Shown here piece by piece: positions 8,893 through 28,045 of a stretch of DNA of 30,900 nucleotides. Position numbers and translations under genes: made by a program. The notes under the pieces are model-generated. The model had not been told where the DNA came from, did not search any database, and saw only the letters and a program-made list of their open reading frames with translations. Each line of letters starts with the position of its first letter. Positions within the stretch are counted from its first letter, which is position 1. Source of the stretch: a virus (lineage: Duplodnaviria > Heunggongvirae > Uroviricota > Caudoviricetes). Location of the stretch: IMG/VR virus record IMGVR_UViG_2617270950_000011; one strand, given 5' to 3'.

Positions 8893-8900
8893 GCCTTACC

Positions 8901-10681: not shown

Positions 10682-10684
10682 CTG

Positions 10685-12518: not shown

Positions 12519-12520
12519 AA

Positions 12521-12751
12521 TTACGCGACCTTACGAATGTAGCGGCTGGGCCAAATCTCCTCGGGCGGCACCCCCAGGCATTCCGCGATAATCCCCTCAT
12601 ACTTGGGAACATGGCGGTATACCGCGTTGTACAGATTGTTCTGACCCACGCCAGCTTTACGGGCCAGCGCCCTCATGCTTCCTTCTCTGGCTCTGACTTC
12701 CCCCAAAATTCTTTGAGGATGCCAATCAGGCTTAACTTCATTTCTCGCCAT
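12521..12751 (-). CDS. ner: Ner-like DNA-binding regulator
   Basis: 76 aa; ...WHPQRILGEVRAR...ALARKAGVGQNNLYNAV...PEEIWPSRYI matches the Mu Ner/Nlp pattern (recalled); sits immediately upstream of the transposase on the same strand. Confidence 0.75.
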   Translation of the reverse strand: MARNEVKPDWHPQRILGEVRAREGSMRALARKAGVGQNNLYNAVYRHVPKYEGIIAECLGVPPEEIWPSRYIRKVA

Positions 12752-12780
12752 GATTCATCTATCCTAAAAAGTTACGAAAT

Positions 12781-12804
12781 TTGATAACTAAACTTAGTTA
12801 TCAA
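12781..12804. promoter_or_regulatory. Operator-like 24-bp palindrome in the divergent ner/repressor control region
   Basis: TTGATAACTAA-AC-TTAGTTATCAA: 11-bp perfect inverted arms, with further TTGATA half-sites just upstream (~12779) and downstream (~12806); lies between the divergent Ner-like and repressor genes. Confidence 0.5.
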
Positions 12805-12935
12805 GTTTGATATAAGTATTGATCCACTTCTGCTTCATGTAAAGCAAAAAAACATCTTTCTTTTGTCTATTGTGGATCAATGGTTGCTGACAACACTAAA
12901 AGTTAATAATTTCAAATTGATAGGAAGAAAAGAAA

Positions 12936-13481
12936 ATGAACAAGCAAACAACAACATCTCTTTCTTTTCCTGGTGGTAGAAAAGAAAGCATTGCTGAGCG
13001 TCTGAAAAGGCTGATTGGCTCCCGCAGCGTCAGAGCTGCAGCAAGAGATTGGGGGCTTTCATTTTCAACACTAAACAATTATCTGTCTCGTGGCACTGAG
13101 CCATCCTTAAGTGTCGCCCTTCAGATTGCGTCTATCGAAGGAGTAAGTGTTGAGTGGCTATGTGGATTCAGTGATGCATCACAAGTGAATCGGTGCGAGA
13201 TCAAAGAAAATCAAGATGAAAGCAAGAAGATAATTATGACGATTATCAGCGCACTTGATGAAAAAGACTTAGAGCAGCTATCGAAAAATTTGGTTCTGAA
13301 TGGAGCCAAGTACTTAGCTCGGTTGTTAGAGCCTGAAAATCAAGATCTAATCCGCTTAGAAGGAAGGAAAAGAATAGCTGCATTACAGCTTGAAGGTATG
13401 TCTGACGAACGCGTCAGAGAGATTTTGGAAGAAACTGAGAGAAGTCGCAAATCTAACGCGGTAGAACCAAAAGCGGGTTAA
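12936..13481 (+). CDS. Phage repressor with CI-type N-terminal HTH (Phage_CI_repr-like)
   Basis: 181 aa; ...ERLKRLIGSRSVRAAARDWGLSFSTLNNYLSRGTEPSLSVALQIASIEGVSVEWLCG is a CI-type helix-turn-helix; divergent from ner across the operator palindrome. Confidence 0.7.
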   Translation: MNKQTTTSLSFPGGRKESIAERLKRLIGSRSVRAAARDWGLSFSTLNNYLSRGTEPSLSVALQIASIEGVSVEWLCGFSDASQVNRCEIKENQDESKKIIMTIISALDEKDLEQLSKNLVLNGAKYLARLLEPENQDLIRLEGRKRIAALQLEGMSDERVREILEETERSRKSNAVEPKAG

Positions 13482-13555
13482 TAGCATTAGCCCGCATTTT
13501 GCACTATATCGAGTATTTCGCATTGTTTGGAACGCCTTAAAAGACTAAAACCACA

Positions 13556-13711
13556 GTATCAAATGAGTTGCCGATTTTATAATAAATGACTAATTATTGC
13601 ACAATCGGTATCAAATAGACCTTATCCGCACATCTAGCCATCACCTGTTTTATTTCAGTATCTTACAGGTGATTTCACCTCCTTTCACTAAAACCCTTGT
13701 CGGTATCAAAT
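13556..13711 (+). repeat. Three direct copies of GTATCAAAT plus a 9-bp inverted repeat at the repressor/gene A junction
   Basis: GTATCAAAT at 13556-13564, 13608-13616 and 13703-13711; inverted repeat ATCACCTGT / ACAGGTGAT at 13640-13648 and 13665-13673; TTATCCGCA (DnaA-box-like) at 13622-13630. Function unknown. Confidence 0.4.
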
Positions 13712-15715
13712 GATTCACCTGGTTATATTAACGAGGCCGCCGCAGCATTCTCATGGAACAGCCCGAAAAAGGCTATTAACCCTTATCTGGACCCGGCGGA
13801 AGTTGCGCCGGTTTCTGCGCTTTCAAACCTGATCACTCTGTACGCTGCCGATAACGAGCAGGAACAACTGCGCCGCGAGGCACTGAGTGATCAGGTTTGG
13901 GAGCGTTATTTCTTTAATGAATCCCGTGATCCTGTCCAGCGCGAAATGGAGCAGGATAAGTTCATTAGCCGGGCAAAGTTGGCGCATGAGCAGCAGCGTT
14001 TTAACCCGGACATGGTCATTCTGGCAGACGTTAACGCCCAGCCTTCCCATATCAGCAGGCCGCTGATGCAACGTATTGAATACTTCAGCAGCCTTGGTAG
14101 GCCAAAGGCTTATTCCCGCTATTTACGTGAGACGATTAAGCCATGTCTGGAACGGCTGGAGCATGTACGCGACAGTCAGCTATCCACTTCTTTTCGCTTT
14201 ATGGCAAGCCATGAAGGGCTGGACGGCCTGCTGATTCTGCCTGAAATGAGTCAGGATCAGGTGAAACGCCTGTCCACCCTTGTTGCTGCGCATATGAGCA
14301 TGTGCCTTGATGCAGCTTGTGGCGATTTGTATGCCACCGATGACGTTAAGCCAGAAGAAATCCGCAAGACATGGGAAAAGGTGGCAGCAGAAACCCTGCG
14401 ACTGGATGTCATACCGCCTGCGTTTGAGCAACTCCGCCGGAAAAGAAACCGCCGTAAACCCGTGCCCTATGAACTCATTCCGGGTTCGCTGGCGCGTATG
14501 TTGTGCGCCGATTGGTGGTACCGGAAATTATGGAAGATGCGTTGCGAATGGCGGGAAGAGCAGTTGCGTGCTGTTTGCCTGGTCAGCAAAAAAGCATCTC
14601 CCTATGTCAGCTATGAAGCCATGATGCATAAACGTGAGCAGCGCCGTAAGTCGCTGGAGTTTTTCCGTTCTCATGAACTGGTGAACGAAGACGGCGACAC
14701 GCTGGACATGGAGGATGTGGTAAACGCCAGCAGCAGCAACCCTGCGCATCGCCGCAATGAGATGATGGCCTGTGTTAAAGGTCTGGAGCTTATCGCGGAA
14801 ATGCGCGGTGACTGCGCCGTTTTCTACACCATCACCTGTCCGTCACGTTTCCATTCCACGCTAAATAACGGCAGGCCCAACGCTGAATACGTTAATGCCT
14901 GGGCGTCTCTGCATCGTGTTCAGCAATTCCGCTTCTTTGGCATTCCGGGGCGTCAGGCTTACCGTGAACTGCGATTGCTGGCTGGTCAGGCGGCAAGGCA
15001 ACAGGGGGACAAAAAAGCAGGTGCGCCGGTACTGGATAACCCGCGCCTTGATGCAATCCTGGCTGCTGCTGATGCTGGTTGTTTTGCCACCTACATCATG
15101 AAGCAGGGCGGCGTACTGGTTCCCCGCAAATATCACCTCATCAGAACTGCTTATGAAATCAACGAAGAACCGACCGCATATGGCGATCACGGTATTCGTA
15201 TTTATGGCATCTGGTCACCCATTGCAGAGGGCAAGATCTGCACTCATGCGGTGAAGTGGAAAATGGTTCGTAAGGCCGTTGACGTTCAGGAGGCGGCAGC
15301 CGACCAGGGCGCTTGCGCCCCTTGGACTCGTGGCAATAACTGTCCCCTTGCTGAAAATTTGAACCAACAAGGGAAAGACAAATCAGCTGATGGGGATACC
15401 AGGACGGACATTACCTGCATGGATGACAAGGAGTTGCACGATTACCTGCACAGTATGAGCAAAAAAGAGCGCCGGGAACTGGCTGCAAGGTTACGCCTGG
15501 TGAAACCGAAACGGCGTAAAGACTACAAACAGCGAATTACAGACCATCAGCGACAGCAGCTCGTCTATGAACTGAAGTCCAGAGGATTTAATGGCAGCGA
15601 GAAAGAGGTCGATTTACTCCTTCGCGGCGGCAGTATTCCGTCAGGAGCAGGCCTGCGTATCTTCTATCGGAACCAGCGTTTGCAGGAAGATGATAAGTGG
15701 CGAAACCTGTATTAA
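13697..15715 (+). CDS. P2 gene A-family replication initiator homologue, apparently missing the HUH/Tyr catalytic core
   Basis: 672-aa ORF from a TTG start (true start uncertain). [23 protein letters not shown] and [27 protein letters not shown] resemble recalled P2 A segments, but no HxH or YxxxY motif occurs anywhere in the ORF. Confidence 0.7.
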
Positions 15716-15807
15716 TTACGCGGGTTAACAATTCGTGCTCTTAATAATACCAGGCATATCAGGCTGATGAACGTAAAAAAACGTTTTACATCAGTAAGAT
15801 TATTATA

Positions 15808-15827
15808 TACTGTAAATATAAACAGTG
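15808..15827 (+). promoter_or_regulatory. LexA (SOS) box
   Basis: TACTGTAAATATAAACAGTG fits CTGT-N8-ACAG with an AT-rich spacer; about 40 bp upstream of the small ORF and DinI-like gene; a second half-site (TGTATACAGTA) follows at ~15832. Confidence 0.7.
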
Positions 15828-15868
15828 GTTATGTATACAGTATTGCTTGTGGTGTCATAGGAGGAAAG

Positions 15869-16057
15869 ATGCAGGACTATTTTTTGGAGTCTTTGAAGCT
15901 CCAGCGCATTGATTTTTTTCTTAAGCTTGTAGCGGCTAGTGAGTGTAGTGATGAAGAGAAGGGGCTGGCTTTGCAGTGGGTTTCTGAACTGACAGATGAA
16001 CTCATGGCAAAAATCAGAACCCACGAATACAACCGCTCAATGGATGTCATCAGCTGA
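15869..16057 (+). CDS. Small SOS-controlled protein, possibly Tum-type antirepressor N-domain homologue
   Basis: 62 aa from the ATG at 15869, preceded by AGGAGG. Downstream of the LexA box and upstream of a DinI-like gene, the arrangement of the 186 tum locus; the function is inferred from context only. Confidence 0.4.
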   Translation: MQDYFLESLKLQRIDFFLKLVAASECSDEEKGLALQWVSELTDELMAKIRTHEYNRSMDVIS

Positions 16058-16067
16058 GGTGACTTTT

Positions 16068-16301
16068 ATGCGCATTGAAATAATGATCGATAAAGAGCAG
16101 AAGATTAGCCAGTCTACCCTAGACGCCCTTGAATCCGAGCTTTACCGCAATCTGCGCCCCCTATATCCAAAAACGGTAATTCGCATCCGCAAAGGTAGCT
16201 CTAACGGTGTGGAACTGACCGGACTGCAACTGGACGAAGAAAGAAAACAAGTGATGAAAATTATGCAGAAGGTGTGGGAAGACGACAGCTGGCTGCATTA
16301 A
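16068..16301 (+). CDS. DinI-family protein
   Basis: 77 aa: MRIEIMIDK...LDALESELYRNLRPLYP...KQVMKIMQKVWEDDSW aligns along its length with E. coli DinI (MRIEVTIAK...IDALAGELSRRIQYAFP...ISEILQETWESADDW, recalled); GAGGTG ribosome-binding site. Confidence 0.8.
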   Translation: MRIEIMIDKEQKISQSTLDALESELYRNLRPLYPKTVIRIRKGSSNGVELTGLQLDEERKQVMKIMQKVWEDDSWLH

Positions 16302-16309
16302 GAAACCTT

Positions 16310-16345
16310 GCCCCCAAGAGAATTTATTCTGATGGGGGCTAGTTT
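16310..16345 (+). terminator. Putative intrinsic terminator after the DinI-like gene
   Basis: GCCCCCA ... TGGGGGC stem with an inner AGAAT/ATTCT stem, followed by TAGTTTGGG. Confidence 0.45.
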
Positions 16346-16707
16346 GGGCAACGAGTGAAACGAGGCGTAAGGTGGGCGGCCATTTTGATAAGTGATTGTA
16401 CGCTTTGTGTTGTGAGTTCAACGGGTCGATGCAACGCTATCCTTAATCAAGGGGACGTTGCTCATACCCATCGATGCAATGAAAATCCATACTCATGGGG
16501 AAGACCAGAATGTCCCTGCCTTTTTCATTTTGTTCAGCACATGCACTATGGCCATTGCCTTCCCAAGCTAGCTATCGTAATCACTCAGCGTCAGTAAACT
16601 ACTGAAAAATTGTTTTACCTTGTATATCAATAATGCCAAATCATACCCAAAAAATCGAAAATAATTAGATCGACAGGCAGAAGGCAATGTGAATAATCTT
16701 AAAAACC

Positions 16708-16737
16708 TTGACTGCCAGTGAGGTTTGGTTCTATAAA
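16708..16737 (+). promoter_or_regulatory. Candidate sigma70 promoter for darT-darG
   Basis: TTGACT (16708-16713), 18-bp spacer, TATAAA (16732-16737); AGGA ribosome-binding site before the ATG at 16769. Confidence 0.45.
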
Positions 16738-16768
16738 TAGACTTACGAATTTGAAAGGATGAGTTGAA

Positions 16769-17350
16769 ATGAGCGAAAGGAAAAGAATTGAAGATCAGTA
16801 TCTTCTCTATCATTTAACATGTATGGATAATCTACCTAGTATTTTAGACACAGGATTAAGATCTCGTGCATCAGTAAAAGGTGAGTTTGTTGATGTGGCC
16901 GACGGTGAAATAATAACAGGTCGCGAAGCATTAAATTTGCAAACAATGGTTCCTTTTCATTTCTTTACTAAGAATCCATTTGATGGAAGAGTCCTGAAAG
17001 ATCATAAGGAAAAATCATTTTGTATTATTTCGGTTTGTCGGGCATTTGCCAAAGAAAATGGTTGGAAAGTTATCCCTAAACATCCATTATCCACCAGTTC
17101 TGTTATAGACCTCTTAGATTATGAACAAGGAATGGCCCAAATTGACTGGGAGCTTATGAATATAAGGGATTATAAAAATGCAGAATGCAAATCTGTATGT
17201 ATGGCTGAGTGTTTATCAAGTGTAACGGTCGAGCCGAAAAATTTCCATTGCATCTTTGTCAAAAATGATAACGAAAAAAAATATGTTGAAGGGTTGATAA
17301 AACAACAAGGATTAAGTATATTGATAACGATCAACACTTATATGTTCTAA
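16769..17350 (+). CDS. darT: DarT, DUF4433 ssDNA ADP-ribosyltransferase toxin
   Basis: 193 aa; N-terminal LLYHLTCMDNLPSIL matches the DarT YHITHIDNL signature; VPFHFF and a downstream AECLS (candidate catalytic Glu) motif; followed 4 nt later by a macrodomain gene. Confidence 0.8.
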   Translation: MSERKRIEDQYLLYHLTCMDNLPSILDTGLRSRASVKGEFVDVADGEIITGREALNLQTMVPFHFFTKNPFDGRVLKDHKEKSFCIISVCRAFAKENGWKVIPKHPLSTSSVIDLLDYEQGMAQIDWELMNIRDYKNAECKSVCMAECLSSVTVEPKNFHCIFVKNDNEKKYVEGLIKQQGLSILITINTYMF

Positions 17351-17354
17351 TTCT

Positions 17355-18326
17355 ATGATTAAGTATGCAAGCGGAAATCTTCTAAACTCTACATCGCAAG
17401 CTCTTGTGAATGCTGTAAACTGCCAAGGAGTCATGGGAAAGGGTATTGCTTTGGCTTTTAAAGAAACTTTTCCCTATAATTTCGAAGTTTATAAGAGAGC
17501 ATGCACCACTGGTACAATGAAAATTGGACAGGTTTTAATTGTAGAGGAAAAGGGAAAAATAATCGTAAACTTTCCCACTAAAGATAGTTGGAGAAAAAAA
17601 TCAACATATGATTTTATCTCGCAAGGCCTTGAATCTTTAGCAAAAATTATAGACGAAAAAAAAATTACATCAATATCAATACCACCTTTAGGCTGTGGTA
17701 ATGGGGGCCTCGATTGGAATAAGGTTGAGGCTCTTATTTTAAAAACTTTTCAAAATTTAGATAATGTTGATGTGGTAATTTATCCGCCTGCAACTAACAA
17801 TCAGCTTTCAAAAAATAAAAATGTTATTAATGCTAAGCATCTTTTGGTTCACTACGCCTATGGAAAATTAAAAGTTAAGCAAAAATATTCCCTTTATACA
17901 GTTTTTTATATTTGCGAATGTATTGAGAAAGCAAATCTTTTTTTATTCGATTTTAAACATGGTCGGCCATACTCTTCTGAGTTAGAAAATATTATGAAGG
18001 ATATAGCAAACCTTAAAGTTGAGTTGCAAGGAGATTTTGATGCTTTTATTGAAGATTATATTAATACTCATCAATCCAAAGAGTTACAAACCGAGTTTGG
18101 TAAACTAATCTCAACTTTAAATCCAAGTATAAGTTTTCTCAATGCTCTTAAAAATAAGATTGATTATACAGATAGCGTACATGTGATCACGAGAATTGCT
18201 AAAGAAAAAGATCATGGCTTGCATATTGACAATTTCAAAGAATATGAAAATATTGTGCAGCATTTAATTAAAAATGGATTGGTAATCGAAGATATTTTTA
18301 ACGAACTAAAAATAAAGGGAAGTTAG
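17355..18326 (+). CDS. darG: DarG, macrodomain antitoxin
   Basis: 323 aa; N-terminal ALVNAVNCQGVMGKGIALAFKETFP is a macrodomain signature; translationally coupled to darT (stop 17348-17350, ATG 17355). Confidence 0.8.
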   Translation: MIKYASGNLLNSTSQALVNAVNCQGVMGKGIALAFKETFPYNFEVYKRACTTGTMKIGQVLIVEEKGKIIVNFPTKDSWRKKSTYDFISQGLESLAKIIDEKKITSISIPPLGCGNGGLDWNKVEALILKTFQNLDNVDVVIYPPATNNQLSKNKNVINAKHLLVHYAYGKLKVKQKYSLYTVFYICECIEKANLFLFDFKHGRPYSSELENIMKDIANLKVELQGDFDAFIEDYINTHQSKELQTEFGKLISTLNPSISFLNALKNKIDYTDSVHVITRIAKEKDHGLHIDNFKEYENIVQHLIKNGLVIEDIFNELKIKGS

Positions 18327-18999
18327 TAGCGCTATTTTCAATTTTTTTGCTGAAATTGCGCATGCACACTCTTACGCATTATAGATGCGGCGTTAATCCC
18401 GCCAGGAGTGTTGTTTAATAAATTGAACTATTTCTGCATTGAAGGATCAACTTACGCATTCGCTGACAACGCAGGCACTCTCCTGGCTAAGCAGAAATTC
18501 AGAGTAACCAACTGGCACTTTTACAACAATTTTCTTATCAGTTGCGGCTCCATGACTTTCTGGTGGGATAACAAAGCAATTAAGGCGTGGTATTGTAAGT
18601 ATCCCGCATAATCATGCTAGTAACATTTGTCCCCCATGTAACCTAATTAAGGCAACTTCCGCTCTTCGCTCACAGTGAACCTCCATGTTTGTAAACCCGT
18701 ATATTTCGTTTTTCAAGTGGTCATTCAGATACGGATTTTCACTTCTCTTGGCTGTGCATGTCTATGCCGCATGAATCCGCATGATCGTTTGAGGATCGTT
18801 TTTGCTGAGGCCCCCCAGAACTGGCGGGCTTTTGCTTATGTCATGCAGGTGCATGAAAACCACTGCATAAAGCGGGCAGGCGTGGCGGGGATACGAGCGC
18901 GCGCTAACTCATAAATCTTAGATTATTAGTGGATTTATCTCATTGAAATGTGCACTATTCCCAGCATTGAGTTGTACCAGATGTCTTTATGGAGGGACT

Positions 19000-20766
19000 G
19001 TGGCTTTTGTAACTGATATTCGGCTTGAAGATAATGCTATTGCTGCACCTGCGACAGCACAGGTTATGGCTCAGAGGCTAGGATCTGTATTACGTAAGAG
19101 ATATGAAGAATTCATCCATAAAAGAGAGTGTGCACCAGGCCAAGCAGACTATGATGTAAAAATGGCTAGCAGGGCTTTAGCTGCATTCACTATGTATCAG
19201 TTAGGATGTGTGGATGATAAGTATGCAGGGGAGTCTGTATGTGATAGTAGTGAAGATGGTGGTATAGATGGAATAGCAATCAACCATAACGAAAAAATCG
19301 TTGTTGTTGTTCAATCAAAATTTCACCAATCGGGAAACGGCACTTGGACAAGAGCCGATTTTATGTGTTTTAAGGATGCTTGTGAGAAGCTACAAAGTGA
19401 AAGATACGAATTATTTGATTCCATATTGCAAAATAAAAGCGGGGAAATAAGTGCGGCTTTAAGTAGTTTTGAATACAAGTTCATCTTTGCGATGGCGCAT
19501 ACAGGTAAAAAAGGTGCTGCAGAGGAAATATTAAATGATATGCGGGAATGGCAATATCAATTAAACGCTGCAGCTTTTACACCTGAGGATGAGCCTAAAG
19601 AGAACTGGGGATTTCAGGTTCATTTAATATCCTCTGAAGATATGATGCATTGGTTACAGAATGGCTCTCGAAATCAAATTGATCTTAACAGGGTTGAAAT
19701 TGAGCGTTTTGGATTTTTGAATGAACCATATCAAGCTTTTTACGGGGCTATTAGTGGTGATCAAGTTGCAGAATGGTGGGAAGAGCATGGTGCTCGATTA
19801 TTTACAAAAAACATAAGGAATATGCTTGGTAAAACAGAAGTGAATGAGGAAATAAAAAAGACAGCTATAGATAATCCTGATATGTTTTGGTTTTATAATA
19901 ATGGGATTACTGTACTGGTTAAGGAGGTTGTTCCTCATAGACGAAACGCAGCTCCTAATATAGAGAGAGGGATTTTTGATTTTCGTGATGTAAGTGTCAT
20001 TAATGGTGCACAAACAGTCAGTAGTATTGGCGCATGTAAAGATGCGCTTGGTGAAAACATATATAGACTCAAAGTGCCAGCTAGATTCATTGTTATAGAT
20101 GATGATACTGATAATTTAACTGCAAATGCGATTACAAAAGCTAACAATTTCCAAAATAGAGTATTGGGAAGAGATTTTGCGTCGCAGCAGGCAGATCAAC
20201 ATAGATTGGCAAGGGAGTTAGTGCTTGAAGGATATCAATATCAGTTACTAAGAACAGATGAAGATCATTCACAGACAAATACGAAAGTCATTGACTTGGA
20301 TGAGGCGCTCAATGCACTCGCATGTTTAAGTAAAAATAATACGGTTGTATCGACACTAAAATCAAATCGCGGTAGGTTTTTTGAAAATTTTGAAGGCTCT
20401 CTATATAAAACTATTTTCAATCCAAGATTAAGTGGTTTAAAACTTATCAATACTGTTCTACATTTTAGAGTTATAGATAAGTTGATCGGTAAAACATTAC
20501 TATCAGTAGATAAAACTACCCATAGTCGCAAGCATTTAATTATTACGCATGGTAATAGATACTATGCGTCTGTGCTATTGAGCAACGTTTCTGGGATACA
20601 TAATAGCTCAGAAATTCTTGTTCCAGATGAAAAAAATCTTTCCGAAGAATTAAGTGCATTAATTCAACGTGCTGAAGAGTACATTGAAGATAATTACCCG
20701 AATGCCTATCCGGCAAGATTTTTTGCAAATCCAACGAAAATACAAGAGTTATACGATAATGTTTAA
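19000..20766 (+). CDS. Uncharacterised 58x-aa to 607-aa protein, tentatively AIPR-family with an N-terminal PD-(D/E)xK-like motif; candidate defence gene
   Basis: Maximal ORF 18943..20766 starts at TTG; the GTG at 19000 follows GGAGGG and the ATG at 19066 is an alternative. Motifs seen: DGGIDGIAINHNEKIVVVVQSKF, FWFYNNGITVLV, VINGAQTVSSIG. No Walker A, so not P2 Old. AT-rich. Confidence 0.5.
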   Translation: MAFVTDIRLEDNAIAAPATAQVMAQRLGSVLRKRYEEFIHKRECAPGQADYDVKMASRALAAFTMYQLGCVDDKYAGESVCDSSEDGGIDGIAINHNEKIVVVVQSKFHQSGNGTWTRADFMCFKDACEKLQSERYELFDSILQNKSGEISAALSSFEYKFIFAMAHTGKKGAAEEILNDMREWQYQLNAAAFTPEDEPKENWGFQVHLISSEDMMHWLQNGSRNQIDLNRVEIERFGFLNEPYQAFYGAISGDQVAEWWEEHGARLFTKNIRNMLGKTEVNEEIKKTAIDNPDMFWFYNNGITVLVKEVVPHRRNAAPNIERGIFDFRDVSVINGAQTVSSIGACKDALGENIYRLKVPARFIVIDDDTDNLTANAITKANNFQNRVLGRDFASQQADQHRLARELVLEGYQYQLLRTDEDHSQTNTKVIDLDEALNALACLSKNNTVVSTLKSNRGRFFENFEGSLYKTIFNPRLSGLKLINTVLHFRVIDKLIGKTLLSVDKTTHSRKHLIITHGNRYYASVLLSNVSGIHNSSEILVPDEKNLSEELSALIQRAEEYIEDNYPNAYPARFFANPTKIQELYDNV

Positions 20767-20770
20767 ACTA

Positions 20771-20794
20771 AAGGGAGGTTGCCTCCCTTTTTTT
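20771..20794 (+). terminator. Intrinsic terminator after the 607-aa gene (hairpin plus T-run)
   Basis: AAGGGAGG-ttg-CCTCCCTT followed by a run of T; the reverse strand also ends in a shorter T-rich stretch (possibly bidirectional). Confidence 0.6.
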
Positions 20795-20796
20795 AA

Positions 20797-21321
20797 TTAG
20801 AAATGGTATTCTTGGAATTCAATAACACCTTCTTTTATGAAATTGTTTATTTCTTGTAATCTTTTTTGCAATGGCAATAATTCATTACGTACAAATACTT
20901 TACTCGCCTTCTCTACATCTCCAAAGCCCCCAACATTATTAGGCATTATCCCCATCATTTGCGGCGGCACACGGTGTGCCGCCATCATGTCGTCCCGGCT
21001 CACGTTCTTGATATTTAGAAACTCATCCTTCGCCGCGACTTCTGACAACGGGATAATCTGAAGCCCGTCCTTTTTGCCGTTAGGAGAGTACATAAACAGG
21101 TTGCGGAAGTTGCCTGGCCCTTTGGCGCTTTTCATTGCGTTGCGGAGGTTGTTCACATCTTCTTGGTTCTGCGCGGCATCGGTCATGTACATGATGAAGC
21201 CTGCATGACTACCGTTAATGTAATACTTGCGGCGGAACAGCGTGGCGGACTCGTTGAGCAGGGCCGACGGAATGGCAGAAAGATAACCGGGCAGGCCGTA
21301 GACCTCCTGGTTGATGTCCGG
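20797..21321 (-). pseudogene. Portal protein (P2 gpQ-like) C-terminal fragment
   Basis: Frame open from 21321 down to the stop at 20797; ...AHRVPPQMMGIMPNNVGGFGDVEKASKVFVRNELLPLQKRLQE resembles portal C-termini (recalled). The N-terminal portion is absent. Confidence 0.5.
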
Positions 21322-22244
21322 TTATCGGCTTTGTTGCGCCCACGGTTGAATAGCGCACCGGACCAGAACGGATAAGCACTGTGTGTCAGGCTGGATGGCG
21401 TGGAAAAATAGGTTTGTCGCCATTTCTTGTGAATAGCCATACCGGAAGCCACTTTGCGCAGCTCCTGGAATTTCGGTATCCAGAAATATTCATCCAGATA
21501 CAGGTTGCCGTGATAACTCTGGGCAGTGCGGGCATTGGTGCCGAGGAAGTAAAGCGTGGCCCCGTTAGGAAGCACCATCGGATCGCCTTTCAACTCCACC
21601 TCCACTTCTTTGGCGAAGTCGATGATGTACTGCTTAAAGACGTGGGCCTGTGCCTTGCTGGCGGAAAGGAAAATCTGGTTACGTCCGGTCAGCAGGGCGT
21701 CAATCAGGGCTTCACGGGCAAAGTAAAAGGTCGCGCCGATCTGGCGTGACTTCAGCAGGTTGCGGATGCGGTTGGTTTTTCCGGCTTCCCACCAGTGGCG
21801 CTGGTAGTTGAACATGGAGGAATGGAAGATTTCTTCCAGCTTCTCAATCTGCTCATCGGTGAAAACATTCTTTTCCGGCTGACGGCGTGGGCCTTTGTTG
21901 CGGTTGGCGACGTTAGGGTTTAAGTCGGATTCGTTGCCGCCATTGTTAAACTTGCCGATCCGCGCGTGGCGCTCAGACTGGCGCGCCAGCAGGTCAATCT
22001 CTTTGAAATCTTTCCCTTCTTTGTGCTCCTTCATGATGAGCTGGCAGTAGCGTGCGGCGGTGGTGAGCTGCATCTGATCCAGCGGCCCATAGTCACCCCA
22101 CTTGTCGCGTTTTTTCCAGCTGTGAACGGTTGCAACTTTCTCGCCCAGCATTTCAGCAATGCGGGCTACGCGGTATCCCTGAAAGTACAGCAGCATGGCC
22201 TGCCGACGGGGATCGAGATCTGCGGGTGTCAGTGTGGTGTTCAT
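21183..22244 (-). pseudogene. Terminase large subunit (P2 gpP-like) N-terminal ATPase fragment running out of frame into the portal fragment
   Basis: Walker A-like [12 protein letters not shown] and Walker B-like [10 protein letters not shown]; credible sequence ends near ...[11 protein letters not shown] (~21350), after which the frame reads low-complexity junk to the stop at 21183. The nuclease half is missing. Confidence 0.7.
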
Positions 22245-22290
22245 GGCACAAACCTACAGCCTTGAATGAAGGCTTTCCCCGCCTGCGGTT

Positions 22291-22308
22291 TGTGTGGTTG
22301 TCTGGACA
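22291..22308. promoter_or_regulatory. TGT-N12-ACA dyad (Ogr-type late promoter element) in the gpP upstream region
   Basis: TGTGTGGTTGTCTGGACA; the P2 late-promoter dyad is normally centred near -55. It lies about 50 bp from the gpP start and may be the PP or PO element. Confidence 0.4.
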
Positions 22309-22632
22309 GACGGCATTGGTAATACATCTGGTGTCATTCCAGGCAAAACCATTACGGAACGACAGGCAGCGGAAGGGCTGATCTCCAACGTGCTGCGTGT
22401 GGAGCGGGCGCTGGAAAGGTGTGTGAAGCAACAGCCGCCGCAGAAAGTGTATGACGCGGTGGTGTCATTTGCCTTCAACGTGGGGACAGGCAATGCCTGC
22501 AGCTCCACGCTGGTGAAATTGCTCAATCAGCGGCGCTGGGCGGATGCGTGCCGACAGTTGCCGCGCTGGGTTTATGTGAAAGGTGTTTTTAATCAGGGGC
22601 TGGATACTGGAGCTGAAGGTGTATGTGGATGA
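22294..22632 (+). pseudogene. T4-type (GH24) phage lysozyme fragment, truncated at both ends
   Basis: VSFAFNVGTGNACSSTLVKLLNQRRWADACRQLPRWVYVKG parallels the RrrD-type lysozyme core ([41 protein letters not shown], recalled). The N-terminal catalytic region is missing and the C-terminus reads into the fibre fragment. Confidence 0.65.
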
Positions 22633-23578
22633 CCTGATGGCAAAACACCTTGCCGCACAGGACCCACATTCACAGTATGCACCCAAAGAAAGTCCGACGT
22701 TTACCGGAACCCCCAAAGCGCCAACGCCAGCGGCGGGGAATAATACCACGCAGGTTGCGACCACTGCGTTTGTTCAGGCGGCACTGACGGCCCTTATTAA
22801 TGGTGCGCCAGCCACGCTGGACACGCTGAAAGAAATAGCCGCAGCCATTAACAATGATCCGAATTTCAGTACCACCATTAACAATGTGCTGGCACTAAAA
22901 GCACCGTTGTCGAGTCCGGCACTCACCGGAACGCCAACAGCCCCCACGGCGGCGCAGTCGGTCAACAATACACAGATTGCCACTACAGCTTTTGTGAAAT
23001 CGGCAATTGCAGCAATGGTGGGGTCTGCACCTGCGGCACTGGATACACTGAACGAACTGGCGGCGGCGCTGGGGAATGACCCGAACTTTGCCACGACAAT
23101 GCTTAATGCGCTGGCAGGCAAACAACCGCTGGATAATACGCTGACTAATTTGAGTGGAAAGGATATAGAAGGAATTCTTACTTATCTTGGTTTAGGGCAT
23201 TTGGGAAATGCGGCAGGTAGAAATGTTGGTAATGCTAATAGTTATGAAATCCCTGACATGAGCTATTTTCAGCTAACAGGAAAAGGAAGCGATAATTTGT
23301 TGGTTAAAGGTCCGAATGGTTTAATTATACAAATATTTCGAAGAAATCTTCCTAATAGTACAACTATTGGTATTCCACAACAGCTTCCTATTACATATCC
23401 AACGCCATTCCCTAACGGAGTATGGGGTGTGTTTGTCACAAAAATGACATATGCACAAGTCGTTACGTCGTGCGAAAGTATATATAATGATGGGTTTACT
23501 GCTGTAACTTGTTTGACATCAGGAACCAGCAGTGATTCAAAAGTTTCAGGCGCTGTATTTATTGCATTTGGATATTAA
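22583..23578 (+). CDS. Tail fibre protein, C-terminal portion (N-terminally truncated)
   Basis: VYVDDLMAKHLAAQDPH collar-like motif, then tail-fibre repeat units (TGTPKAPTPAAGNNTTQVATTAFVQAAL..., TGTPTAPTAAQSVNNTQIATTAFVKSAI...ALDTLNELAAALGNDPNF) and a variable AT-rich tip. About 185 residues of an H-type fibre are missing upstream. Confidence 0.65.
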   Translation: MFLIRGWILELKVYVDDLMAKHLAAQDPHSQYAPKESPTFTGTPKAPTPAAGNNTTQVATTAFVQAALTALINGAPATLDTLKEIAAAINNDPNFSTTINNVLALKAPLSSPALTGTPTAPTAAQSVNNTQIATTAFVKSAIAAMVGSAPAALDTLNELAAALGNDPNFATTMLNALAGKQPLDNTLTNLSGKDIEGILTYLGLGHLGNAAGRNVGNANSYEIPDMSYFQLTGKGSDNLLVKGPNGLIIQIFRRNLPNSTTIGIPQQLPITYPTPFPNGVWGVFVTKMTYAQVVTSCESIYNDGFTAVTCLTSGTSSDSKVSGAVFIAFGY

Positions 23579-23580
23579 AT

Positions 23581-24057
23581 ATGAAAAGTTGTGATGATTA
23601 TCAACATGATTCTTCTTATGATTTCATATGGGATAAGGTAAATGCCAGATTTATGGCGTATATATTAAAAAATGAATATGAAAGAAATGGAATGTGGCCT
23701 AAGGAAGGGGTGGATATTTCAAATGAGACTGCTTGTGAATTCATGAAACAACCTCCGGAAGGAAAAATTCTTGGGGCAGATGATAATGGTATGCCTGCAT
23801 GGATTGATACGCCACCACTCACATATACAGAGTTAGTGGCTAAAGCAAAAACTGAAAAACAAGCACGTATAATAGAAGCTGTAAATTATATAAATAACAA
23901 ACAATGGCAGGGGAAAGCATTGCTTGGGAGACTGAATGCTACTGAACTGGAAATGTATAACATATGGCTTGATTATATTGAAGCATTAGAGGCTATTGAT
24001 CCATCAAAAGCCTCTGATACAGCCTTTCCGACTAAGCCATTTAACGATTCAGTCTGA
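23581..24057 (+). CDS. Tail fibre assembly protein (Tfa / gpG-like)
   Basis: 158 aa with the typical C-terminus ...QWQGKALLGRLNATELEMYNIWLDYIEALEAIDPSKA; immediately follows the fibre. Confidence 0.75.
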   Translation: MKSCDDYQHDSSYDFIWDKVNARFMAYILKNEYERNGMWPKEGVDISNETACEFMKQPPEGKILGADDNGMPAWIDTPPLTYTELVAKAKTEKQARIIEAVNYINNKQWQGKALLGRLNATELEMYNIWLDYIEALEAIDPSKASDTAFPTKPFNDSV

Positions 24058-25072
24058 GAATTGGATTAACAAACAACCGATCAATAATCAAGCTTAAACC
24101 AAGGCTGATAAAAAAAATGACTAAAGACAGGGATGTTGTTTTTAGTAAAATGTTGTCCACGATAAAAGGAATATTGAAATATTTCTCTAAGACTCTGAAA
24201 ACACAAACATGAATTAAATAAATTCCGTATGTCAGAGGTGCTATTTTTTCAATGATTAAAATTATTTTTTTATTATTGATGTTTATTTTTGTAAATGCAA
24301 TTACTATCAAGGAACACATTAACAACATATTAATCCCTGAGTCAAATGGGTATATGTTAAAGTTATATTTGTTAACGCTAAAATAAACAAACATCACATG
24401 TAGTAAAAATATAAAAGGGATGCTATATACAATATAATGTGTTTTAATGTCAACTCTTTTTAATAATCCGCCGACAACAAAATATAAAACCCATGTATCT
24501 ATGCTCTGTAATGGGATTAAATGATGGTAGTATTGAGAGGATTGGCTTAGAGAGTATGAGTATAATGAATAATAAAAAATGAAAGCCAAAACTATAATCA
24601 CCTTAAGGCTGTCGGCTTGTGGGATTTTATTGACTATGTATTGAATTGCTGGAGCGGTTAAATACAAACCGATAAAGGCATAAACAAACCAGAAATGCAC
24701 AGAGAGTGAAATAGTGCTTTTAGATATTAATGAGAAATATTCAAGTAAATTCGATGACGTTCCATTATTCCAGCTAATAATATAGTAATGTGCTAATGAA
24801 TATATTACAAAAGGGATAATAATGGCGGGGATTCTTTTTTTATAAAACAAAAGTGGAGTGCTATTTTGTCTGTTGAGTAGGTAGTATCCACTTAACATAA
24901 AGAATATTGGTAAACCAATGCGTACAATTGATTGTGCAAAAAGAGTTTGTATTTGTATACTTTCTGTTTGGTTACTGGTAACAGTATAAGCATAGTCGGG
25001 CGTGACATGAATTCCTATTACAAAAATACAACAAATAATACGTAACAGGTCTAAAGAAATATCTCTTTTCAT
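24041..25072 (-). CDS. Acyltransferase-3 family integral membrane protein (O-antigen/surface glycan acyltransferase-like)
   Basis: 343 aa, polytopic and very AT-rich; N-terminal MKRDISLDLLRIICCIFVIGIHV fits the acyltransferase_3 start (R-x-D-x-x-R ... H). Opposite strand to flanking late genes, in the P2 Z/fun position; its 3' end overlaps tfa by 17 bp. Confidence 0.7.
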   Translation of the reverse strand: MKRDISLDLLRIICCIFVIGIHVTPDYAYTVTSNQTESIQIQTLFAQSIVRIGLPIFFMLSGYYLLNRQNSTPLLFYKKRIPAIIIPFVIYSLAHYYIISWNNGTSSNLLEYFSLISKSTISLSVHFWFVYAFIGLYLTAPAIQYIVNKIPQADSLKVIIVLAFIFYYSLYSYSLSQSSQYYHHLIPLQSIDTWVLYFVVGGLLKRVDIKTHYIVYSIPFIFLLHVMFVYFSVNKYNFNIYPFDSGINMLLMCSLIVIAFTKININNKKIILIIEKIAPLTYGIYLIHVCVFRVLEKYFNIPFIVDNILLKTTSLSLVIFFISLGLSLIIDRLFVNPILRLNR

Positions 25073-25133
25073 ATAGTATTCAATCTGATTTAAATGGATG
25101 ACAGATGCGCAATAGTAAAATAGATTTGCGTAT

Positions 25134-25166
25134 AATAATCAATACATATTGAGATATATTGATTAT
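25134..25166. promoter_or_regulatory. 10-bp perfect inverted repeat upstream of the acyltransferase gene
   Basis: ATAATCAATA ... TATTGATTAT separated by 13 bp, 60-95 bp upstream of the acyltransferase ATG; candidate operator. Confidence 0.3.
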
Positions 25167-25192
25167 TTTATGAAAAGCCCTCATGGCGCTGT

Positions 25193-25210
25193 TGTGCCAT
25201 TTCCCATACA
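25193..25210 (+). promoter_or_regulatory. Ogr-dependent late promoter element (PF-like) upstream of sheath gene FI
   Basis: TGT-GCCATTTCCCAT-ACA (TGT-N12-ACA), centred about 84 bp upstream of the FI start codon, consistent with a -55 dyad and a short leader. Confidence 0.5.
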
Positions 25211-25285
25211 ATCCCCATCGCGTGCACCCTGCGCGTATCAACCAGAACATAGGCAGACCCCCTCTACAACCGGAGAGACTGCCTT

Positions 25286-26458
25286 ATGGCTCAGGATTAC
25301 CACCACGGAGTGCGCGTTGTTGAAGTCAACGAAGGCACCCGATCCATTACCACGGTGAGCACCGCCATCGTGGGCATGGTCTGCACGGGCGATGATGCCG
25401 ATGCAAAAATGTTTCCTCTTAATAAACCCGTGCTGATCACTGATGTGCTGACTGCCAGCGGTAAAGCGGGTGAGTCCGGCACGCTGGCCCGTTCGCTGGA
25501 TGCCATCGCTGACCAGGCAAAACCCGTGACCGTTGTTGTGCGTGTGCCGCAGGGTGAAACGGAAGAAGAAACCACAACCAATATCATTGGCGCAGTGACC
25601 GCCGAGGGTAAAAAAACAGGTATGAAAGCCCTGTTATCTGCCCAGTCACAGCTCGGCGTTAAACCGCGCATTCTCGGCGTGCCGGGTCACGATAACAAAG
25701 CCGTTGCGACTGAGCTGCTGAGTGTGGCGCAAAGCCTGCGCGGGTTTGCTTACCTGTCAGCGTATGGCTGCAAGACAGTGCAGGAGGCGATCACTTACCG
25801 TGAAAACTTCAGTCAGCGCGAAGGGATGCTGATCTGGCCTGACTTTACTGGCTGGGACACGGTGCTGAATGCCGAAGCAACGGCATATGCCACCGCCCGT
25901 GCGCTCGGTCTGCGCGCCAAAATTGATGAGCAGACCGGGTGGCACAAGAGCCTGTCCAACGTAGGCGTGAACGGTGTCACCGGAATTTCTGCTGATGTGT
26001 TCTGGGATCTGCAGGACCCGGCAACCGATGCGGGACTGCTTAACCAGAACGACGTCACCACGCTTATCCGCAAAGACGGTTTCCGCTTCTGGGGTTCCCG
26101 CTGCCTGAGTGATGACCCGCTCTTTGCCTTCGAAAACTACACCCGCACGGCGCAGGTACTGATGGACACGATGGCAGAAGCGCATATGTGGGCGGTGGAC
26201 AAACCGCTGAACCCGTCGCTGGCCCGCGACATTATCGAAGGTATTCGCGCCAAAATGCGCAGCCTGGTCAGTCAGGGCTATCTCATTGGTGGTGATTGCT
26301 GGCTGGACGAGTCGGTGAACGATAAAGACACGCTGAAAGCCGGAAAACTCACCATCGATTACGACTACACGCCAGTACCGCCACTTGAAAACCTGATGCT
26401 GCGTCAGCGCATCACCGATCAGTACCTGGTGAATTTCTCCAGCCAGGTAAGCGCGTAA
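25286..26458 (+). CDS. Contractile tail sheath protein (P2 gpFI-like)
   Basis: 390 aa (P2 FI is about this size); in the FI position ahead of the tube gene; GGAGAG ribosome-binding site. Confidence 0.75.
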
Positions 26459-26467
26459 GGGGGCAAC

Positions 26468-27736
26468 ATGGCTTTACCACGTAAATTAAAACATCTGAAC
26501 CTGTTTAACGACGGGAACAACTGGCAGGGGATCGTAGAGTCGCTGACGCTGCCGAAATTCACCCGCAAATATGAGAAGTATCGCGGCGGCGGTATGCCGG
26601 GGGCGGTGGATGTGGATCTGGGACTGGATGACGGCGCACTGGATACTGAATTTTCCATTGGCGGTACTGAGCTGCTGCTGTTTAAGCAGATGGGCAAAGC
26701 TACGGTGGATGGCATCCAGCTGCGCTTTACCGGCTCTATCCAGCGTGACGATACCGGGGAAGTGCAGGCCGTGGAGCTTGTGGTGCGTGGACGTCACAAA
26801 GAAGTGGATTCCGGCGAGTGGAAGACGGGCGAAAGCAACACCACCAAAGTGACCAGTACCAACAGCTACGCGAAGCTGACCATCAATTGTGAGGTGCTCT
26901 ACGAAGTGGACCTTATCAACATGGTGGAAATTGTGGACGGTGTCCGGGCGCGAAGTGCTGATTTTCGGGAAACGCTGAATACCCGCCGTGAAAAATCGTG
27001 GCACAAGACCACAGTTGGGGAAGTGGTGAAGGAAATAGCCGCGCGTCACAAGCTGAAGATGGCACTGGGTAAAGACCTGTCAGATAAACCCGTGGAACAT
27101 ATAGACCAGACTAATGAGAGTGACGGCAGTTTTCTGATGCGGCTGGCGCGCCAGTACGGTGCTATTGCGTCGGTGAAAAATGGCAATCTGTTATTCATTC
27201 GGCAGGGACAGGGTAAAAGCGCCAGCGGTAAACCACTGCCGGTGATCACTATCACACGTAAGGACGGCGACAGTCACCGCTTTACCCTGGCAGATCGCGG
27301 ATCTTACACGGGCGTAATTGCCAGCTGGTTGCATACCCGCGAACCCGCGAAGAAAGAAAGCACCACGGTGAAGCGTAAGCGCAGGACCGCAAAGCAGAAG
27401 AAAGAGCCGGAAGCGAAGCAGGGCGATTACCTGGTGGGTACGGATGAAAACGTGCTGGTACTTAATCGTACTTATGCCAACCGGGGCAACGCTGAACGAG
27501 CGGCGAAAATGCAGTGGGAACGCCTGCAACGCGGCGTTGCGTCATTCTCGCTACAACTGGCGGAAGGGCGGGCAGATCTCTACACGGAAATGCCAGTGAA
27601 AGTCAGTGGCTTTAAACAGCCGATAGATGATGCGGAATGGACCATTACGACTCTGACACATACCGTCAGCCCGGATAATGGTTTTACGACCAGTCTGGAG
27701 CTTGAAGTGAGGATTGATGATTTCGAAATGGAATGA
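26468..27736 (+). CDS. In-frame fusion of tail tube FII (N-terminal ~145 aa) to tail protein D (C-terminal ~275 aa)
   Basis: N-terminus MALPRKLKHLNLFNDGNNWQGIVESLTLPKF is tube-like; from RARSADFRETLNTRREKSWH...HIDQTNESDGSFLMRLARQYGAIASVKNGNLLFIRQ the sequence is gpD-like (recalled). The FII 3' end, E/E', T, U and D 5' end are absent. Confidence 0.7.
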   Translation: MALPRKLKHLNLFNDGNNWQGIVESLTLPKFTRKYEKYRGGGMPGAVDVDLGLDDGALDTEFSIGGTELLLFKQMGKATVDGIQLRFTGSIQRDDTGEVQAVELVVRGRHKEVDSGEWKTGESNTTKVTSTNSYAKLTINCEVLYEVDLINMVEIVDGVRARSADFRETLNTRREKSWHKTTVGEVVKEIAARHKLKMALGKDLSDKPVEHIDQTNESDGSFLMRLARQYGAIASVKNGNLLFIRQGQGKSASGKPLPVITITRKDGDSHRFTLADRGSYTGVIASWLHTREPAKKESTTVKRKRRTAKQKKEPEAKQGDYLVGTDENVLVLNRTYANRGNAERAAKMQWERLQRGVASFSLQLAEGRADLYTEMPVKVSGFKQPIDDAEWTITTLTHTVSPDNGFTTSLELEVRIDDFEME

Positions 27737-27826
27737 TTCTTCGCAATGGAGAACTTTTAAGTTTGCAAAATGGGATAATGCGGTATCATTATTGTGAATT
27801 TAGCAAAAATGGGGAGAACTCGAAAA

Positions 27827-28045
27827 ATGATGATTTGCCCACTGTGTGGAAGTGCCGCCCATACTCGCAGCAGTTTTCAGGTATCTTCATTGACCAAAGA
27901 GCGTTACAACCAGTGCCAGAACATTAACTGCAGCCATACTTTTGTTACTCATGAAACTTTTGTTCGTTCGATTGCAACGCCAAAAGAGTCAAATCCGGTT
28001 CAGCCGCATCCAATGAAATCAGGGCAGGTGGCGCTCTCTCTTTGA
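27827..28045 (+). CDS. ogr: Ogr/Delta-family zinc-finger late gene activator
   Basis: MMICPLCGSAAHTRSS...KERYNQCQNINCSHTFVTHETF...VQPHPMKSGQ parallels P2 Ogr (MFHCPLCQHAAHARTS...KERYHQCQNVNCSATFITYES...VRPHPLPSGQ, recalled); start taken at the ATGATG at 27827 after GGGGAGAA. Confidence 0.85.
   Translation: MMICPLCGSAAHTRSSFQVSSLTKERYNQCQNINCSHTFVTHETFVRSIATPKESNPVQPHPMKSGQVALSL

Follow-up and report, generated by a model that had tools for sequence, protein, structure and literature searches.

The window analysed here, the whole 30,900 nt of the IMG/VR virus record IMGVR_UViG_2617270950_000011, contains a P2-like prophage in which an acyltransferase gene, neaT, lies on the opposite strand between the tail fibre assembly gene and the tail sheath gene. 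The features discussed below are as follows.

22583..23578, plus strand: tail fibre gene H, N-terminally truncated (Pfam Gp53-like_C 6.1e-07; PHROG tail fibre families).
23197..25187, no strand: variable low-GC module of fibre tip, tfa, neaT and the neaT upstream region (from homology breaks, divergence and GC).
23581..24057, plus strand: tail fibre assembly gene tfa (P2 G / yfdK homologue), intact (Pfam Caudo_TAP 7e-23; PHROG 188 2.5e-34).
23985..24018, minus strand: stable hairpin 23-56 nt past the neaT stop, inside the 3' end of tfa and without a U-run (inverted repeat I8).
24041..25072, minus strand: neaT, AT3-family integral membrane acyltransferase, 343 aa.
25073..25187, minus strand: AT-rich neaT upstream region with the native promoter inside (CFT073 expression data).
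25134-25143 / 25158-25167, no strand: perfect 10-bp inverted repeat AATAATCAAT / ATTGATTATT (shuffle test; RNA fold z -3.75).
25193..25210, plus strand: Ogr/Delta activator site of the FI (pF) late promoter, TGT-N12-ACA (read from the sequence; aligns with the annotated P2 pF site).
25286..26458, plus strand: tail sheath gene FI, intact (Pfam Phage_sheath_1, Phage_sheath_1C, Gp18_domIII_N).
26468..27736, plus strand: in-frame FII::D fusion (Pfam Phage_tube at residues 4-159 and Phage_GPD at residues 172-401).

A preliminary description of this DNA had assigned the span 24041-25285 to a membrane acyltransferase gene of the AT3 family. The gene is there and intact; its open reading frame ends at 25072, and the remaining 25073..25285 is made up of the upstream region and the FI late promoter. 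The product matches Pfam PF01757 Acyl_transf_3 with an E-value of 1.9e-40 and 139.3 bits (cut-off 31), over residues 5-330 and model positions 2-324 of 326, that is, along the full length and above the gathering score. PHROG 3333, 'O-acetyltransferase', is matched at 2.4e-22.

The protein shares 341 of 343 residues with NeaT of uropathogenic E. coli CFT073 (locus C_RS04585, WP_000817508.1), the two substitutions being M252L and I273T, and the genes differ at 8 nucleotides. Both prophages have the same genes flanking neaT and occupy the same chromosomal site adjoining ybjL (rcdA/ybjL). On the strength of this sequence identity, the common flanks and site, and the fit to the published description (PMC3573123), we take the open reading frame to be an allele of neaT ('nomadically evolved acyltransferase'), and this identity is not in doubt. 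The gene was described in 2013 in the P2-like prophage of CFT073, with its position, AT-richness, rarity and bloodstream-fitness phenotype (Wiles et al. 2013, PLoS Pathog 9:e1003175, PMC3573123), and is thus not a new find; a search of the later literature on neaT gave nothing beyond citations. The present analysis adds a larger mobile unit, fibre-adjacent relatives, purifying selection in decayed prophages and co-occurrence with serogroup O6. In the CFT073 lysogen neaT has its own promoter, is transcribed opposite to the late operons, and alters swarming, aggregation, macrophage association and bloodstream fitness (PMC3573123).

The gene order is that of P2: H, G, fun(Z) on the opposite strand, the pF activator site and FI. 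The placing of the gene at the P2 Z/fun position, on the opposite strand between tfa and the FI late promoter, therefore agrees with the P2 map, and the 17-bp overlap with the convergent tfa is confirmed at 24041-24057. The TGT-N12-ACA element is conserved in Citrobacter, and homology to the P2 backbone restarts just ahead of it. Two cargo-less P2-like relatives, L015 and L016, have a tfa-FI gap of 135 bp. neaT has the features of P2 cargo ('moron'): it lies between G and the pF activator site, runs against the late operons and is missing from close relatives. These observations establish neaT as a lysogenic-conversion gene that uses the second of the cargo sites of P2-like phages, the one between tfa/G and FI.

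As had been noted, the gene is far more AT-rich than its flanks (29.7% GC against 53-57%), with 27.8% GC in the upstream region, 56.8% in FI and 53.1% in proximal H. Since GC is also low in the fibre tip (37.2%) and in tfa (36.5%), the AT-rich block is wider than neaT and has its start near 23197. This is also where the receptor-binding tip of H (Gp53-like_C) begins. Homology to L015 and L016 stops at 23196 and restarts at 25188, and in the comparison with CFT073 22 mismatches (0.9%) fall in the segment 23195-25587, against a divergence of 4.9% and 5.4% on its two sides. Among complete E. coli genomes, the 9 with neaT are also precisely those with fibre tip and tfa at a minimum of 95% identity; four further genomes, K-15KW01, ECE170, Ecol_545 and C1, have a distant homologue of the fibre tip only and no AT3 gene. 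The unit swapped between P2-like backbones is thus fibre tip, tfa and neaT together (23197-25187), larger than neaT itself. The proposed cassette insertion stands as regards foreign composition and horizontal exchange, with this three-gene unit in place of the acyltransferase alone.

A syntenic triple of tip, tfa and acyltransferase (56%, 41% and 42% identity) was found in a myovirus prophage of different organisation, apparently outside the P2 group. All the full phage-borne relatives examined adjoin a fibre, tailspike or tfa gene, except L105, with tfa 2.4 kb off, and L107, for which no such neighbour was found. This adjacency could also reflect nothing other than end-of-operon sites tolerant of insertion.

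In CFT073, 211 bp upstream of neaT were enough for expression and complementation (PMC3573123), and the upstream sequence in the window is nearly identical. By our own reading, the candidate promoter hexamers TTGATT and TACTAT, with a spacer of 19 nt, are kept in the Citrobacter orthologue. A consensus scan of the minus strand at neaT gave no strong promoter and no canonical terminator, and no obvious Shine-Dalgarno sequence precedes the gene. The hairpin at 23985..24018 is a candidate 3'-end structure for neaT (16-nt arms, 88% complementary; 86-nt RNA fold of -27.8 kcal/mol, z -3.7).

The previously reported 10-bp inverted repeat upstream of the gene is present, its right arm reaching 25167. 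Shuffling produced a comparable perfect repeat in 0.8% of trials when applied to the 115-bp upstream region and in 10% when applied to the 1.15-kb AT-rich stretch. Ahead of the 76%-identical Citrobacter orthologue the left arm has not been kept, and a role as regulatory site was rejected as unsupported.

The prophage around neaT has lost much of its length. Measured against its CFT073 counterpart, H has lost about 156 N-terminal codons to a deletion with its junction at 22606, and a 4.4-kb deletion, mapped against CFT073 to a junction at 26943, has created the FII::D fusion; LR-64-2 and E423 carry the same deletion. Head, lysis, baseplate and most tail genes are absent, while the other (first) cargo slot holds DarTG defence genes and an AbiU-like gene. 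Judged from the sequence, the FII::D fusion marks the prophage as defective and no longer able to make virions.

Such surroundings, together with the lack of an obvious Shine-Dalgarno sequence or consensus promoter, might suggest that neaT is itself a decaying, non-functional remnant or a chance reading frame in AT-rich DNA. We find this scarcely credible, and it is already contradicted by data on selection and expression. The frame is full-length and spans the Pfam model from one end to the other, dN/dS is 0.06-0.09 (0.089 against CFT073 and 0.061 against Citrobacter), and in CFT073 the gene is transcribed and complements. In all the decay states examined it is intact, namely in three differently deleted descendants of one E. 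coli prophage (that of the window and those of LR-64-2 and E423, whose alleles are 100% identical) and in a C. freundii remnant in which the sheath gene is split by frameshifts. neaT is functional and has been kept under purifying selection, in two genera, while the prophage decays.

The N-terminal signature given earlier for the protein, R-x-D-x-x-R...H, is not literally present; it reads R3-D4-x3-D8-x2-R11...H22. Its key positions are nevertheless conserved, as among 35 homologues R3, R11 and also R51 are at least 90% conserved, and H22 is invariant along with R80, S61-G62, H126, H288 and 22 further columns. The AT3 hallmarks, a histidine in TM1, basic residues and an S-G motif after TM3, are thus present. 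The AF2 model (pLDDT 93.6) is all-helical, with a single Pfam domain and no SGNH domain, and its polytopic membrane fold is related to HGSNAT and GWT1; searches of the PDB by sequence and with Foldseek found no bacterial AT3 membrane domain. NeaT is accordingly an integral membrane AT3 enzyme with about ten transmembrane helices.

The profile search and comparison with Oac/OafA-type enzymes that the preliminary description had called for did not place NeaT among them, the protein having no SGNH domain and no NCBIfam equivalog. The sole NCBIfam match with E<1 was VanT (0.42), and the WecH and OpgC equivalog models, which we presume NCBIfam to hold, gave no match at E up to 1. NeaT would therefore lie outside the Oac, OafA, WecH and OpgC subfamilies. 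The source names of ten homologue clusters are all the generic 'acyltransferase'.

The acyl donor of AT3 enzymes is cytoplasmic acyl-CoA; the acyl group, in most cases acetyl, crosses the membrane domain via the conserved TM1 histidine and is joined, on the periplasmic side, as an ester to a sugar hydroxyl of an envelope glycan. By analogy with the family, NeaT would pass an acyl group derived from acyl-CoA via H22 to a sugar hydroxyl of a periplasmic glycan. One such glycan is peptidoglycan, and O-acetylation of the OatA type was the option first weighed by Wiles et al. (PMC3573123), the two proteins being of one Pfam family. NeaT, with 343 aa, has no SGNH/esterase domain, however, and a context of receptor-binding genes suits a surface glycan better. 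Sensitivity to lysozyme, tested in the deletion mutant, is unchanged by neaT, as is sensitivity to polymyxin and serum (PMC3573123). A peptidoglycan substrate is thus highly improbable. Hardly more promising, and in our opinion very unlikely, is a phage-exclusion or defence gene acting in the manner of P2 Fun(Z) and not through glycan acylation. The slot and orientation are those of fun(Z), and DarTG and the AbiU-like gene in the other slot would be fitting company, but no PADLOC defence-protein family matched NeaT (0 families), which is unrelated to Fun(Z), and the conservation of all AT3 catalytic positions under purifying selection points to enzymatic activity.

Further we examined which bacteria carry neaT. 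It was found in 9 of 5,426 complete E. coli genomes, and all nine have the O6 wzx/wzy genes (serogroup O6), which occur in only 154 of the 5,426 (2.8%). The nine represent two chromosomal backgrounds and three phage backbones, and the strains are not phylogenetically independent. The restriction to O6 could stem from the host range of the fibre alone.

Outside E. coli, orthologues with 56-76% identity are present in Citrobacter and Enterobacter, and a 36%-identical relative is common to Salmonella serovars Waycross and Bron, which are believed to differ in O antigen. A tblastn search of 50,697 phage records gave no close homologue, only N-terminal matches with 23-34% identity. In a scan of one genome per species a few gammaproteobacterial relatives (Enterobacterales, Allochromatium) had 32-41% identity; the remaining ones (22-34%) belong to other phyla, mostly Bacteroidota and Firmicutes, and are uninformative on the substrate.

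The best explanation, and one we hold to be rather probable, is that the AT3 enzyme encoded by neaT acylates an envelope glycan, probably the receptor of the fibre tip, with the O6 O-antigen as the leading candidate. The tip inherited along with the gene would probably use the acylated glycan as receptor or co-receptor, and modification of this glycan may give the phage superinfection exclusion, the change of the host surface being a side effect. The published data speak against O-antigen acetylation and receptor masking, suggested from the start, when judged by the refutation criterion that the preliminary description itself had set. The O serotype was the same for CFT073 with and without neaT and for strain HS expressing neaT, and the LPS gel profile was also unchanged (Table S2, PMC3573123). 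We would not, however, expect O serotyping or LPS PAGE to resolve a 42-Da acetyl group. O-antigen acylation is revived as a hypothesis by the presence of O6 in 9/9 carriers, the linkage to the tip and the fibre-adjacent relatives, with the O6 O-antigen as the leading candidate substrate. A literature search gave no evidence of O-acetylation of the O6 antigen. The repeat-unit mass reported for O6 strain ATCC 25922 is 892, which by our arithmetic fits an unacetylated unit of 3 hexoses and 2 N-acetylhexosamines, and no match to neaT was found in this strain.

Alternatively, NeaT may acylate a glycan common to all E. coli and relatives (enterobacterial common antigen, LPS core, colanic acid, cellulose/poly-GlcNAc or osmoregulated periplasmic glucans), the O6 link then being a matter of phage host range only. 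P2-type phage fibres usually bind the LPS core, and ED1a and S88 are not O6. Over-expression of neaT caused the same aggregation in Nissle 1917, ED1a, S88 and F11 and suppressed the cellulose/curli morphotype in Nissle (Text S1, PMC3573123). The aggregation in non-O6 strains speaks against an O-antigen substrate and argues for an E. coli-wide one or an artefact of over-expression. The unchanged O serotype and LPS ladder and the relatives in Citrobacter, Enterobacter, Waycross and Bron also suit a shared glycan. Against it, the phenotypes come from over-expression, no WecH or OpgC equivalog was matched, and O6 in all nine carriers is left as a coincidence of host range. We regard this alternative as doubtful.

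The preferred reading, acylation of the probable fibre-tip receptor, has a narrower form, in which NeaT is specific for the O6 O-antigen and is inherited with an O6-recognising tip and its chaperone as a three-gene host-range unit, the receptor change altering bloodstream behaviour. We put this forward tentatively, as a possibility short of an even chance.

Few prophage cargo genes have been shown, as neaT has, to affect bloodstream infection. With carriers confined to O6, joint movement with tip and chaperone, and retention during decay, O6 acylation becomes experimentally addressable. If the O6-specific form is true, the substrate that a known virulence-associated gene has long lacked would be identified, and P2-like and other myoviruses would share a portable cassette of receptor-binding tip, chaperone and receptor-modifying enzyme.

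Compared with known systems, NeaT has about 10% identity to HGSNAT and GWT1, which are eukaryotic transmembrane acyl-CoA acyltransferases of solved structure and differ in substrates and organisms. OafA and GtrC (OafB) of Salmonella and OatA of Gram-positives share the AT3 domain with the TM1 histidine, but have about 600 aa and a periplasmic SGNH domain, while NeaT has 343 aa and no such domain. P2 Fun(Z) is likewise non-essential cargo between G and the pF promoter in the same orientation; it is an unrelated protein from a 1,587-bp gene, blocks the growth of T5 and is not an acyltransferase.

Oac of Shigella phage Sf6 (gene 15), a membrane acyltransferase of about 333 aa, resembles NeaT in consisting of the AT3 domain alone, and its gene is also a conversion gene with its own promoter, convergent to and directly downstream of the receptor-binding (tailspike) gene. 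Identity is 29% and limited to the first ~120 residues (pairwise E 0.003; hhalign probability 47%), and tblastn with NeaT at E up to 1 found no Oac of isolated phages. For Sf6 Oac both the substrate and seroconversion are established, whereas O serotyping and LPS PAGE were negative for NeaT (PMC3573123), in assays presumed insensitive to acetylation; the finding of O6 in every carrier points in the opposite direction.

The closest counterpart is NeaT of CFT073. The backbone in the window is about 5% diverged and heavily deleted, and the first cargo site holds other cargo (DarTG and the AbiU-like gene); the P2-like prophage family, the rcdA/ybjL site, the slot between tfa (yfdK) and FI, the opposite strand and the GC content of about 30% are the same.

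The acyltransferase gene in the window is neaT of Wiles et al. 2013 (PMC3573123). The region is 97.4% identical to E. coli CFT073 overall, and neaT alone is 99.2% identical over 1,032 bp, with two positions (M252L and I273T) differing between the window protein and WP_000817508.1 of CFT073. The preliminary description had read the gene correctly, but as it is already published the novelty is low. The gene is rare, and in CFT073 it has 30% GC and is transcribed against the direction of the tail genes. It adds to virulence when zebrafish are infected through the blood and to fitness during bacteraemia in mice; swarming, macrophage association and aggregation on swim plates are altered by it as well, and 211 bp of upstream DNA is enough for its expression (PMC3573123). 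Our literature search found no later paper naming a NeaT substrate.

Features around neaT (window coordinates)
23581..24057, + strand: tfa, the tail fibre assembly gene, convergent with neaT
24041..25072, - strand: neaT, 343 aa
25193-25210, + strand: TGT-N12-ACA element, aligning with the annotated activator site of the P2 FI late promoter pF
25286, + strand: start of the sheath gene FI

NeaT aligns with Pfam PF01757 (Acyl_transf_3) from end to end (E 1.9e-40; 139 bits, gathering score 31) and also matches PHROG 3333 'O-acetyltransferase' (2.4e-22), in agreement with the acyltransferase-3 family proposed for it. In P2 the genes H and G are followed by fun(Z), which is on the opposite strand, and then by the pF activator site and FI; the gene was therefore rightly placed at the Z/fun position, and the 17-bp overlap with the convergent tfa is borne out by the two reading frames. 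The gene is also, as described, more AT-rich than its flanks, with 29.7% GC against 56.8% in FI and 53.1% in proximal H, and the fibre tip and tfa are low in GC too, at 37.2% and 36.5%. The 10-bp inverted repeat reported upstream is present (arms 25134-25143 and 25158-25167); it occurs in 0.8% of shuffles of the short upstream region, and is uncommon by that measure, and in 10% of shuffles of the whole AT-rich stretch, by which it is not, and its left arm shows no conservation in the DNA upstream of the Citrobacter neaT orthologue. Directly past the neaT stop codon, within the 3' end of tfa, lies an imperfect 16-bp hairpin (23985-24018; 86-nt fold -27.8 kcal/mol, z -3.7) lacking a U-run, and no canonical terminator was seen between the two convergent genes.

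The proposed insertion of a cassette holds in that the unit is foreign and exchanged, but the cassette is larger than the acyltransferase gene and takes in the fibre tip and tfa. In cargo-less P2-like prophages tfa leads directly to FI over a 135-bp gap, and their homology to the window is lost at 23196 and returns at 25188. Against CFT073, 23195-25587 holds 22 mismatches (0.9%), while 22606-23194 holds 29 (4.9%) and 25588-26943 holds 73 (5.4%); hence tip, chaperone and neaT were exchanged together between diverged backbones. The left end of the module falls exactly on the tip boundary. Among complete E. coli genomes, the nine that carry neaT are also precisely those with tip and tfa at 95% identity or above, and distant tips (64-71% nucleotide identity) lie in other myovirus prophages without an acyltransferase gene.

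The P2-like prophage of the window (13697-28045) is defective and, compared with CFT073, has at least five deletions.

Deletions in the window prophage relative to CFT073
14881: internal deletion of 390 bp in gene A
~21309-21323: portal and terminase deletion, giving a portal/terminase fusion
~22296-22302: O-to-K deletion, giving a terminase-to-lysozyme junction
22606: deletion from lysB to the N-terminus of H, giving a lysozyme-to-H junction
26468-27736: in-frame FII::D fusion ORF left by an FII-to-D deletion, junction at 26943

Only the FII::D deletion is common to the window and the neaT-bearing strains LR-64-2 and E423, the remaining ones differing, which indicates three independent paths of decay; tip, tfa, neaT and FI are kept in all three. 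For neaT, dN/dS comes to 0.089 in the comparison with CFT073 and to 0.061 in that with Citrobacter. The gene in the window is an intact, selected neaT for an AT3 membrane acyltransferase at the Z/fun slot, within a three-gene exchanged module of a defective prophage.

Three defence genes, also found in E423, occupy the other P2 cargo site (16769-20766), which lies between gene A/DinI and the portal fragment.

Genes at the other cargo site
16769-17350: DarT (PADLOC 2.2e-36)
17355-18326: DarG (PADLOC 5e-80)
18943-20766: AIPR/AbiU-like protein (PADLOC AbiU 7.4e-25)

In strain PEC399 the neaT prophage is intact, and its cargo at this site (contig L125, 3861-8270: a PD-(D/E)XK nuclease, two hypothetical genes and a ParA-family gene) differs from that of both CFT073 and the window. 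Left of 13728 (1-13727) the window is not P2-like.

Features left of the P2-like prophage
1-11400: Mu-like myovirus tail module, sharing 99.5% identity with prophages of other E. coli
10685-11248: Mu Gp37 homologue
11373-12518: protein with a Mu DNA-binding domain

Compared with E423, the junction falls 34 nt into replication gene A, so the left arm of the P2-like prophage has apparently either taken up an insertion of another element or been replaced by one.

In 2013 no NeaT homologue above 34% identity was known (PMC3573123); current collections hold several closer ones. The Citrobacter freundii orthologue, recorded on dozens of contigs, is 76% identical and sits at the same ybjL-adjacent site (L003-L005; L003 6348-9373). 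Its flanks retain only a tube fragment, a sheath gene in three frameshifted ORFs and a truncated tfa, and the locus looks like a domesticated remnant, in which the acyltransferase gene is intact despite the damage to sheath gene and tfa. Another homologue, 56% identical, is found in a myovirus prophage with a flanking gene order unlike P2, where its neighbours are a tfa of 41% and a Gp53-like_C fibre tip of 42% identity. Nearly all of the 19 full viral-contig loci and the genome loci have the acyltransferase directly beside a tfa, tail fibre or tailspike gene, usually convergent, and the unannotated neighbours submitted to PHROG all matched tail fibre or tailspike families (10/10). Three apparently P2-like (pro)phages (L112, L115 and L116, IMG/VR contigs) carry alleles 31-35% identical in the same slot between fibre/tfa and sheath; as of 2013 such alleles were known in none of 45 P2-like phages. 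This adjacency may mark only sites permissive for insertion.

The O6 wzx and wzy genes are present in LR-64-2 and CFT073, and O6 wzx-wzy was found in 154 of 5,426 complete genomes, among them VE-F10, PEC399, E423 and UPEC_U013; by these matches all nine neaT records from complete E. coli genomes carry the O6 cluster. The nine genomes represent two chromosomal backgrounds (flank 98.5% identical to CFT073 and 99.96% to PEC399) and three phage backbones: that of CFT073, that of PEC399 (97.8% to CFT073 and carrying other cargo at the first site) and that of the window (~95-96%). If three independent events are assumed, about 0.028 cubed (2e-5) would be expected by chance, a figure that is indicative only as the strains are not independent samples. 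Two of six genomes with distant tips, there in other prophages, are also O6 (EC43 and EC16). The O6 restriction may reflect the host range of the fibre alone.

Going by its family, NeaT would move an acyl group from acyl-CoA onto a glycan facing the periplasm; its context suggests that this glycan may be what the co-travelling fibre binds as its receptor, the O6 antigen being the leading candidate. Against this, over-expression phenotypes are seen also in strains that we take not to be O6, and a relative is common to Salmonella serovars that presumably differ in O antigen. Further, serotyping and gels gave negative results in the published work: CFT073 remains O6 and strain HS is not converted, and no neaT-linked difference was found in LPS gel profile or in lysozyme, polymyxin and serum sensitivity (PMC3573123). 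In our view O serotyping and LPS gels are not sensitive enough to show a change of 42 Da. Co-occurrence with O6, together with the three-gene module, sharpens the earlier suggestion of O-antigen acetylation into a testable form.

Across 35 homologues H22 (in TM1), S61-G62, Y77, R80, H126, W128, G201-G202 and H288 are invariant, and conservation is 90% or higher at R3, R11, R51 and D244. The AlphaFold model built on this alignment is all-helical with a mean pLDDT of 93.6, and NeaT has no SGNH domain and matches no NCBIfam equivalog or PADLOC model. The suggested comparison with Oac, the O-antigen acetylase of phage Sf6, does not make NeaT a close relative, the identity being only 29% over ~120 residues. 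Sf6 has the layout of the neaT loci, with tailspike gene 14 followed by a convergent oac that has its own promoter.
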